Of a stretch of 2,417 nucleotides of DNA, positions 581 to 2,222 are shown in pieces. The notes under the pieces are model-generated. The model was not told where the DNA came from, did no database searches, and saw only the letters and a program-made list of their open reading frames with translations. Location of the stretch: the NCBI GenBank assembly GCA_000004985.1, contig GG739264.1, one strand, 5' to 3'. The translations under genes and the position numbers were made by a program. This DNA is from Naegleria gruberi. Its lineage: Eukaryota. Numbering within the stretch: position 1 is the stretch's first letter; every line of letters begins with the position of its first letter.

Positions 581-817
581 TCAATCCTCCCTAAGCAACT
601 CAATTATTCTTTTCGTTTCCTCCAATTTCATATCAAAACTCCTCAATGAATCTTCATGGAATTCCTTCTCTCCAAACAAGTGAGTCAATTTATGCTGATA
701 CGAAACTCTAATATCTGTATTTGTACTCTTTTGTAAACATTCAACGGTCCACTCAATTGAATCAGTCAATTCTCTTATAATACTCGATTGTTTTTCAACT
801 TGTGCATAATATTTCAT
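581..817 (-). CDS. Hypothetical 78-aa ORF. It is probably the C-terminal part of the F-box gene that was separated from it by the inverted-repeat element.
   Basis: ORF track: MKYYAQVEKQSSIIRELTDSIEWTVECLQKSTNTDIRVSYQHKLTHLFGEKEFHEDSLRSFDMKLEETKRIIELLRED*. The same frame stays open upstream of the ATG (codons E-R-C-F-L-N at 818-835) all the way to the element boundary at 835/836. It is closed only by a TAA (plus 845-847) 9 nt inside the element. It is in frame with the F-box ORF once 836..1620 is removed. Confidence 0.35.
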   Translation of the reverse strand: MKYYAQVEKQSSIIRELTDSIEWTVECLQKSTNTDIRVSYQHKLTHLFGEKEFHEDSLRSFDMKLEETKRIIELLRED

Positions 818-835
818 TTCACGACAGAAGAGATT

Positions 836-971
836 GAGAGCATTTTATCACTATTCACAAATAAAAAATTAATTACACAGATTTAAAAATTTGTGTTTGT
901 GTTTGTGTAGACAGACCATTTTATCTTGCACAAATATTTGTGAAAACACAAAAGTATTTTATTAAAATAAT
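836..971 (+). repeat. Left arm of the inverted repeat: block A 836-879, a 10-bp spacer, block B 890-936, an 18-bp insert TTTGTGAAAACACAAAAG, then block C at about 955-971.
   Basis: Direct comparison with the reverse complement of 1460-1620, as detailed in the mobile_element entry. Confidence 0.85.
890..907 (+). repeat. (TTTGTG)3 microsatellite inside block B of the left arm.
   Basis: tttgtgtttgtgtttgtg read directly from the sequence. Confidence 0.9.
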
Positions 972-1509
972 AAATTATTGTGGTCTTGAATCTTAGGTTG
1001 TTTTCTATGAATCTAGTAGTAAAAGTTCATTCGTCGTTGATCTTGAAATATGTGATCCGATATCAATATTGTTGTTGCAAGAATTGGACATGAATCGGGT
1101 TCTAACAAATGGTTGCTGATTTCTTCTCCCGTTTGATGAAGGAGAAGTTTAATACATTTTTTATTAATTAAATATTAAAAAATGTAAGAAGAACACCTTC
1201 ATCAGAGAAACCAACATCAACACCACCAACAACCCAAGATTCAAGTGAAATAAAGAGGGAAAGCAGTAACAGAATGGAATAATTAAATATTTGGAACAAA
1301 ACAGTTTGTTTTTGGAGCATGCTTTCATTGATTCCGCACCACCAGAACCAACTCCATCATCACTAATTAAATTAGGATACATTACATTCGAATCAACATA
1401 TTGTAGAAATACCTTTCTGATTTCAACTTATACCTTCTATTGAGATAGACATTAGTTGGAATAATTTTAATAAAAATATGTATTTGTGCAAGATAAAATG
1501 GCCTGTCTA

Positions 1510-1527
1510 CACAAACACAAACACAAA
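1510..1527 (+). repeat. (CACAAA)3 microsatellite. It is the inverted copy of 890-907, inside block B' of the right arm.
   Basis: cacaaacacaaacacaaa read directly. It is the reverse complement of the left-arm microsatellite. Confidence 0.9.
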
Positions 1528-1540
1528 TTTGTGAAAATAT

Positions 1541-1560
1541 TTTAGCACAATTTAGCACAA
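1541..1560 (+). repeat. Perfect tandem duplication of a 10-mer (TTTAGCACAA x2) inside the right-arm-specific insert.
   Basis: 1541-1550 and 1551-1560 are both tttagcacaa. Nothing corresponds to them in the left arm. Confidence 0.9.
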
Positions 1561-1905
1561 ATATTCACAAAAAATTTGTGTAATTAATTTTTTATTTGTG
1601 AATAGTGATAAAATGCTCTCATTGTCTAAATAATTAATTTTTTCATCAATTAAATTCCCAATTAGTGGACGAATTGAATCTTGATAGAAATTTTCTCCAA
1701 AGTCTAATTGTTCAATTTTTACATGACAATGGGATGGATCGATATGTTTCCGATATAATTGAAGAATTTGTTTCCAATAGAATGGATCTGTTGTGATACG
1801 ATTGTAAGTTGATTTGTTGATCAATAAAATGTTTCGAATATGTTTTAATGAGAGAAAGGAAAATATTTCGGTTTGTAATTCTGTTGGTAAATCCAATAGA
1901 GACAT
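1552..1905 (-). CDS. F-box domain protein (117-aa ORF as it stands). The F-box motif is at residues ~5-46. The last 22 codons and the stop are encoded by the right arm of the inverted-repeat element, which suggests a truncated or disrupted gene.
   Basis: ATG at 1905-1903. LLDLPTELQTEIFSFLSLKHIRNILLINKSTYNRITTDPFYWKQ fits the F-box consensus (LPxE(I/L)xxxIFSxL...I/L...VxKxW; Pfam F-box family). Pro codons are all CCA and Gly codons are GGA/GGG, which fits a nematode-like organism. Residues E96..C117 plus the stop lie in block A' and the spacer (1552-1620). The motif call is from memory of the F-box consensus and has not been run through HMMER. Confidence 0.6.
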   Translation of the reverse strand: MSLLDLPTELQTEIFSFLSLKHIRNILLINKSTYNRITTDPFYWKQILQLYRKHIDPSHCHVKIEQLDFGENFYQDSIRPLIGNLIDEKINYLDNESILSLFTNKKLITQIFCEYLC

Positions 1906-2013
1906 TTTTCTGTTATTATAATTCGAGTGACATCACAATCACCTTTTGATTATTCGATTTAGTATCGATCAATTTCTAATAATTCCCACACAACTCGATA
2001 AAGGAAATTCCAC

Positions 2014-2181
2014 ATGAAATTATCACAAATTGGATGTTCTACATGGACAAACAAACTCTTTTCAATTTCATTAGAAGTTTACAATATTTTTGATGAAATT
2101 TATGCAGAGAGTGCAGAAAGATTGGAAATTTTAAATAACAAGAGAAAGAGTAGTGATTTGATTGGATTTGTTTTCGAATGA
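2014..2181 (+). CDS. Hypothetical 55-aa ORF (MKLSQIGCSTWTNKLFSISLEVYNIFDEIYAESAERLEILNNKRKSSDLIGFVFE*), divergent from the F-box gene.
   Basis: ATG at 2014-2016 and TGA at 2179-2181. An AAGGA at 2001-2005 sits 8 nt upstream of the ATG and looks Shine-Dalgarno-like, but this is weak evidence in AT-rich DNA. The composition is protein-like and no domain is recognised. It is below the track cut-off. Confidence 0.2.
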   Translation: MKLSQIGCSTWTNKLFSISLEVYNIFDEIYAESAERLEILNNKRKSSDLIGFVFE

Positions 2182-2200
2182 AAGTCGAGAGAGAAGTGAT

Positions 2201-2222
2201 GAGAAAGTATTCATACTCTCTC
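2201..2222. repeat. Near-perfect 10-bp palindrome (GAGAAAGTAT tc ATACTCTCTC, 9/10 pairing). An alternative 7-bp stem, GAGAGAG at 2186-2192 against CTCTCTC at 2216-2222, is also possible.
   Basis: Read directly. It lies 20 nt downstream of the stop of the 2014..2181 ORF. No T-run follows, so it is not a canonical intrinsic terminator. Confidence 0.5.

Follow-up and report, generated by a model that had tools for sequence, protein, structure and literature searches.

A terminal-inverted-repeat element within a small F-box gene of Naegleria gruberi, and its empty site in an intact copy

The stretch of DNA analysed here (the window; 2417 bp, 29.8% GC) carries two open reading frames (ORFs) on its minus strand that are separated by a long inverted repeat. 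This arrangement raises the question of whether the two ORFs are the halves of one gene, and if so, what has come to lie between them. The first-pass annotation of the window had proposed that the coding sequence of an F-box gene was interrupted by a transposon, whose own sequence now encodes the tail of a truncated ORF. For the gene and its junctions with the intervening segment, we distinguished the following features.

1621-1905, minus strand: 5' part of the F-box gene (codons 1-95, with the F-box at about residues 3-48), 99.0% identical to positions 89-378 of an intact metagenomic copy on contig L001.
581-832, minus strand: 3' part of the F-box gene (codons 96-178 and the stop codon TGA), its frame still open, 99.4% identical to L001 positions 375-733.
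1552-1905, minus strand: truncated ORF as now present, comprising 95 native residues and 22 residues read from the right arm of the element (ESILSLFTNKKLITQIFCEYLC).
836-1620, no strand assigned: probable non-autonomous terminal-inverted-repeat (TIR) DNA transposon of 785 bp and 28.7% GC with ends 5'-GAGAGC...GCTCTC-3', absent from L001.
833-835, no strand assigned: left copy of the target-site duplication, ATT; the next base, G836, is likewise repeated, and L001 has a single ATT(G).
1621-1623, no strand assigned: right copy of the target-site duplication, ATT, coinciding with codon N95.

Frame translation reproduced the gene structure on which the proposal had been built. The minus-strand ORF 1905-1552 is native up to N95 (codon 1621-1623), and residues 96-117 as well as the stop codon (TAA, 1552-1554) are read from the right arm of the element. 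This stop codon is localised to a 39-nt segment (1533-1571) that is present in the right arm only. On the other side of the element, the frame of the 78-residue ORF is open from codon 835-833 and is closed by a TAA at 845-847. Deletion of 836-1620 gives a protein of 179 residues and deletion of 836-1623 one of 178 residues, and the 534-nt coding sequence contains no frameshift or stop codon other than the insertion. The N-terminus of the rebuilt protein matched the Pfam F-box family PF00646 (residues 3-45, E = 5.8e-7, 29.6 bits), which places it above the gathering threshold of 20.5 bits and agrees with the original assignment.

We identified uninterrupted copies of the rebuilt gene in two sources. 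Comparison of the 178-residue protein with 5.8 billion proteins returned a single match and only close homologue, P0001 (175 residues as called), which is uninterrupted and 98% identical. P0001 is encoded by L001, a 1368-bp metagenome contig (ENA ERZ929261, run ERR1078381), and its 90% cluster includes the Naegleria gruberi protein XP_002678832.1 / EFC46088.1 (NAEGRDRAFT_65882). The latter is 178 residues long, is annotated in the reference proteome from a 537-kb scaffold and differs from the reconstruction at one residue (EKE[F/L]HED; 177/178 identical). The 3' part of the gene corresponds to its residues 96-178, within which this F/L difference lies. The host is therefore the heterolobosean amoeboflagellate N. 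gruberi or a very close relative, and the nematode F-box family setting suggested in the first-pass annotation has to be abandoned. The same match rules out a giant-virus or bacterial-symbiont origin, which the low GC content and compact ORFs had led us to consider; we also found no related F-box loci in viral contigs. Exact look-ups of the 117-residue truncated ORF and of a 58-residue ORF of the window returned no recorded sequence.

The comparison with L001 defines the insertion to the nucleotide. L001 aligned to window positions 1910-1621 at 99.0% and to positions 836-478 at 99.4%, with the two alignments overlapping by 4 nt in L001 and the breakpoints falling precisely at 835/836 and 1620/1621. 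Written in the orientation of the window, the empty-site sequence is ...CGACAGAAGAG ATT GTCTAAATAATT..., and the intact junction is ...GAAGAG ATT GTCTAAAT..., i.e., the window minus 788 bp. Because L001 contains a single ATT, it lacks exactly these 788 bp, which are the 785-bp element and one ATT. An uninterrupted copy of the rebuilt gene is provided by L001, at ~99% nucleotide identity, and by XP_002678832.1; the proposal thus withstands the check that the first-pass annotation had suggested. The interrupted and intact copies differ at 5 nt in 645 bp (0.78%), of which three are non-synonymous and two synonymous. The earlier description of the insertion as recent holds only in relation to this divergence from the intact copy.

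The ATT direct repeat that had been reported on both sides of the element is present, and we refined it to a repeated string of 4 nt, ATTG, at 833-836 and 1621-1624. An ATT duplication with symmetrical GAGAGC...GCTCTC ends would be the most parsimonious description. Alternatively, in the single copy examined, ATTG may be a 4-bp duplication, with the left end starting one base further in. Because the target AGAG-ATT-GTCT is nearly palindromic, the inverted repeat returned by the repeat finder runs seven bases past the element.

An exhaustive HMMER search identified only seven further relatives of the rebuilt protein; those with names are without exception F-box proteins of N. gruberi, 150-180 residues long. 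The N. gruberi paralogues align collinearly across the insertion point and run continuously through it. Given these paralogues and the uninterrupted copies, the two minus-strand ORFs are, on the sequence comparisons, a single gene. The rebuilt ORF shares its N-terminal F-box and helical C-terminus with NAEGRDRAFT_65882, _68229, _63477 and _49593; unlike these small N. gruberi F-box proteins, the copy in the window is interrupted and encodes the first 95 residues followed by a 22-residue foreign tail. An AlphaFold model based on the paralogue alignment (mean pLDDT 70.9) positioned residues 95/96 in the central part of a long helix spanning residues 73-133, with no break at the insertion point, whereas a single-sequence model was of no use (pLDDT 42). 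Foldseek comparison of the better model with the PDB gave no significant match; the weak, non-significant top fold matches were Fbx4, Cdc4, Fbw7 and Skp2.

Based on the empty site, the continuous paralogues and the lack of a rescuing intron (see below), the original proposal stands: segment 836-1620 is very probably a non-autonomous class II (cut-and-paste, TIR) DNA transposon inserted in a small F-box gene. An alternative that accepts the same insertion concerns its consequence. It is quite possible, if short of probable, that this copy of the gene was already redundant or dying within a decaying cluster, in which case the element would be neutral debris and not the cause of the loss. Two neighbouring features bear on this alternative.

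1930-2208, plus strand: pseudogene copy of the gene encoding P0014, 5'-truncated and frameshifted, aligning to positions 352-665 of contig L002.
2-319 and 319-495, plus strand: two left-hand ORFs whose stop and start codons overlap by one base (TAATG).

The pseudogene is divergent from the F-box gene, in head-to-head orientation, and relative to L002 shows six deletions of 3, 5, 2, 11, 6 and 8 nt. P0014 itself is a 267-residue protein without a Pfam family, encoded on L002 from the same run as L001. The left-hand ORFs also look frameshifted, as a ninth A in the A8 run at 305-312 would merge them into a 163-residue frame; this pair could represent a frameshifted gene, a sequencing error in the homopolymer or an intron that escaped recognition, and showed no homologue in the 5.8 billion proteins. 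In addition, similarity to L001 stops abruptly 103 nt past the stop codon (window position 478) and 5 nt before the ATG (position 1910). Upstream, the two sequences have only a 21-mer in common (window 1960-1980, L001 74-54), and the non-matching flanks of L001 (1-88 and 734-1368) include an unrelated partial 191-residue ORF downstream. These limits point to a putative duplication or rearrangement with boundaries hugging the gene. Given the decayed neighbour and the surroundings only partly shared with the intact copy, the interrupted gene may represent a redundant duplicate, and the annotation of an intact copy in the reference proteome is in line with this. Against this, the coding sequence is otherwise undamaged and only 5 nt away from the intact copies, and L001 could equally be the allele of another strain with a flanking rearrangement.

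The remaining alternatives dispute the insertion itself or its effect on the gene. In other protists, introners are non-autonomous transposons bearing TIRs and target-site duplications, and an element that is spliced out as an intron would allow the full protein to be made. Segment 836-1620 does occupy a frame-compatible position, but we found no GT/GC...AG or AT...AC pair at or near its ends. Each in-frame canonical combination uses poor sites and either loses conserved residues or gains element-encoded ones, and we found no report of Naegleria introners in the literature. With no canonical donor/acceptor pair that restores the native protein, splicing cannot rescue the gene, and we consider an intron very improbable. 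It is likewise hard to believe that the interrupted state is ancestral and that the intact copies arose by precise excision. Cut-and-paste elements do excise, but the duplication and a footprint normally stay behind, whereas only one ATT is present in the intact copies; distant element-free paralogues are collinear through the site. Finally, although short-read assemblies break at repeats, an artefact in which a repeat was chimerically joined into the gene is scarcely credible, as it would not give a 3-bp duplication, symmetrical TIR ends and loss-free junctions on both sides.

The probable transposon has termini 5'-GAGAGCATTTTATCAC...GTGATAAAATGCTCTC-3', and its internal organisation is as follows.

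836-971, plus strand: left TIR, delimited by the repeat finder and gapped alignment of the arms.
1461-1620, minus strand: right TIR, carrying the extra 39-nt segment at 1533-1571 (two copies of TTTAGCACAA).
837-849 and 913-925, plus strand, and 1492-1504 and 1607-1619, minus strand: motif AGASCATTTTATC, two per arm, candidate transposase-binding sites.

The repeat finder identified two pairs of inverted-repeat arms, 829-884/1572-1627 (56 nt, 95%) and 882-936/1481-1535 (55 nt, 95%). Gapped alignment lengthened the arms to ~836-971 and ~1461-1620, corresponding to terminal repeats of ~140-160 nt that are ~97% identical in aligned columns and differ by 39-nt and 15-nt indels. The left arm has a private 15-nt segment near 940-955 without counterpart in the right arm. 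The predicted fold of the coding-strand RNA of the element has an energy of -275.9 kcal/mol compared with -147.8 +/- 8.7 for shuffled sequences, and this difference (z = -14.8) places the inverted repeat beyond chance. Motif AGASCATTTTATC gave 4 matches where 0.03 were expected, and CACAAAT occurs 10 times inside the arms compared with 1.1 expected over the whole window. Both arms also contain a (TTTGTG)3 microsatellite (890-908 and 1509-1527), and the interior of the element features a perfect-spacing palindrome (1153-1186) and an 18-nt inverted pair (985-1002/1228-1245).

Six-frame translation of the element revealed no Pfam domain and no transposase remnant, and a chimeric query of six-frame ORFs, which included the neighbouring ORF of L001, returned no protein homologue at E<=10. 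The element contains no tRNA or Rfam match, and we rejected a tRNA- or ncRNA-derived element on these grounds. Searches for a 43-mer, 23-mer, 20-mer and 21-mer of the arms in IMG/VR, JGI metagenomes and GTDB genomes yielded no real copy, the only hits being two chance 21-mers in L003 (51% GC) and L004. BLASTN against INPHARED phage records gave no match, and contig L005, from the same sample as L001, contains no copy. Besides the copy in the window, none was found in the viral, JGI metagenome and prokaryotic collections covered by these searches. We found no description of this element or of Naegleria TIR families in the literature.

Comparison with known superfamilies excluded several assignments. 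The junction flanks, ...GATT on the left and ATTG... on the right, have TA at neither junction, in contrast to Tc1/mariner (Stowaway-type MITE) insertions. We also rejected hAT, Merlin and MuDR, which make 8-10-bp duplications compared with 3, at most 4, nt here; piggyBac and Kolobok, since the duplicated nucleotides are not TTAA; and canonical CACTA/EnSpm, which combines a 3-bp duplication with CACTA ends where the termini here are GAGAGC/GCTCTC. Harbinger elements usually duplicate TWA. For PIF/Harbinger (Tourist-type MITE), the 3-bp length agrees with our element and the sequence is ATT instead of TWA, although one insertion cannot define a preference. The 3-bp duplication is compatible with Harbinger-like or Zator-like elements. 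PHIS elements (Harbinger/ISL2EU) duplicate none or 1-4 bp and Zator elements 3 bp (PMC10045372); these short duplications agree with the 3-bp ATT, whereas the GAGAGC termini are not diagnostic. With its long arms and terminal as well as internal binding-site-like motifs, the element also resembles IR-DR Tc1-like elements (Sleeping Beauty, Tc3) and Tc4/Tc5. Its ATT fits neither the TA duplication of the ITm group (PMC10045372) nor the 3-nt TNA that Tc4 duplicates inside CTNAG (PMC11071193). With MITE-like non-autonomous TIR elements it shares long TIRs, a short duplication and no coding capacity, as well as AT-richness, strong hairpin potential and genic insertion. Its 785-bp length and ~140-160-nt arms are, in contrast, at or above the size usual for MITEs, and only one copy was seen.

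Based on these features, we propose how the transposon would have come to interrupt the gene. A trans-acting transposase, provided by an autonomous relative, would recognise the motifs repeated within the two ~140-160-nt arms and excise the element. Integration would then proceed through a 3-nt staggered cut at ...AGAG-ATT-GTCT..., within codons 95/96 of a small F-box gene of the NAEGRDRAFT_65882 family, and gap repair would duplicate ATT. In the present sequence, the reading frame enters the right arm and stops after 22 codons, giving a predicted 117-residue product that keeps the F-box. The C-terminal 83 residues are replaced by the 22-residue tail, leaving the downstream 83 codons stranded. 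Such a product would be without most of the predicted long helix and the helical C-terminus, presumably the part that binds partners or substrates. We infer that it would be non-functional or titrate Skp1, and that transcripts reading through the element would fold into a ~140-bp hairpin.

Repeats account for ~5.1% of the N. gruberi genome (PMC6125883); only a minor part of these repeats is classifiable (PMC12344493). Against this background, the locus represents a textbook pair of occupied and empty sites in Naegleria, which provides the precise termini of one TIR family together with a target duplication. The pair indicates that such elements moved so recently that near-identical gene copies are polymorphic for them. 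Otherwise, the disruption of one gene of a multi-copy family by a mobile element is a routine event; it entails no new mechanism or open question, and adds at most one member to a known class of transposons. We think it unlikely that the element comes from a family that is still active in N. gruberi, or was so very recently, that is polymorphic among strains or haplotypes and whose ends, with GAGAGC, an ATT duplication and two binding-site-like motifs per arm, fall outside the standard superfamilies. If it did, its transposase would add a new lineage and the family could serve as an endogenous transposon tool in an organism in which genetic manipulation is difficult.

The contigs L001, L002 and L005 are Naegleria-like contigs of one metagenome run with 26-34% GC; we found no mention of the project accession, PRJEB11402, in the literature. 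Among the contigs of ERZ929261 / ERR1078381 are F-box paralogues, e.g., P0004, that are absent from the N. gruberi reference proteome, and on this basis the Naegleria in the ERR1078381 sample seems to be a strain or species other than NEG-M.
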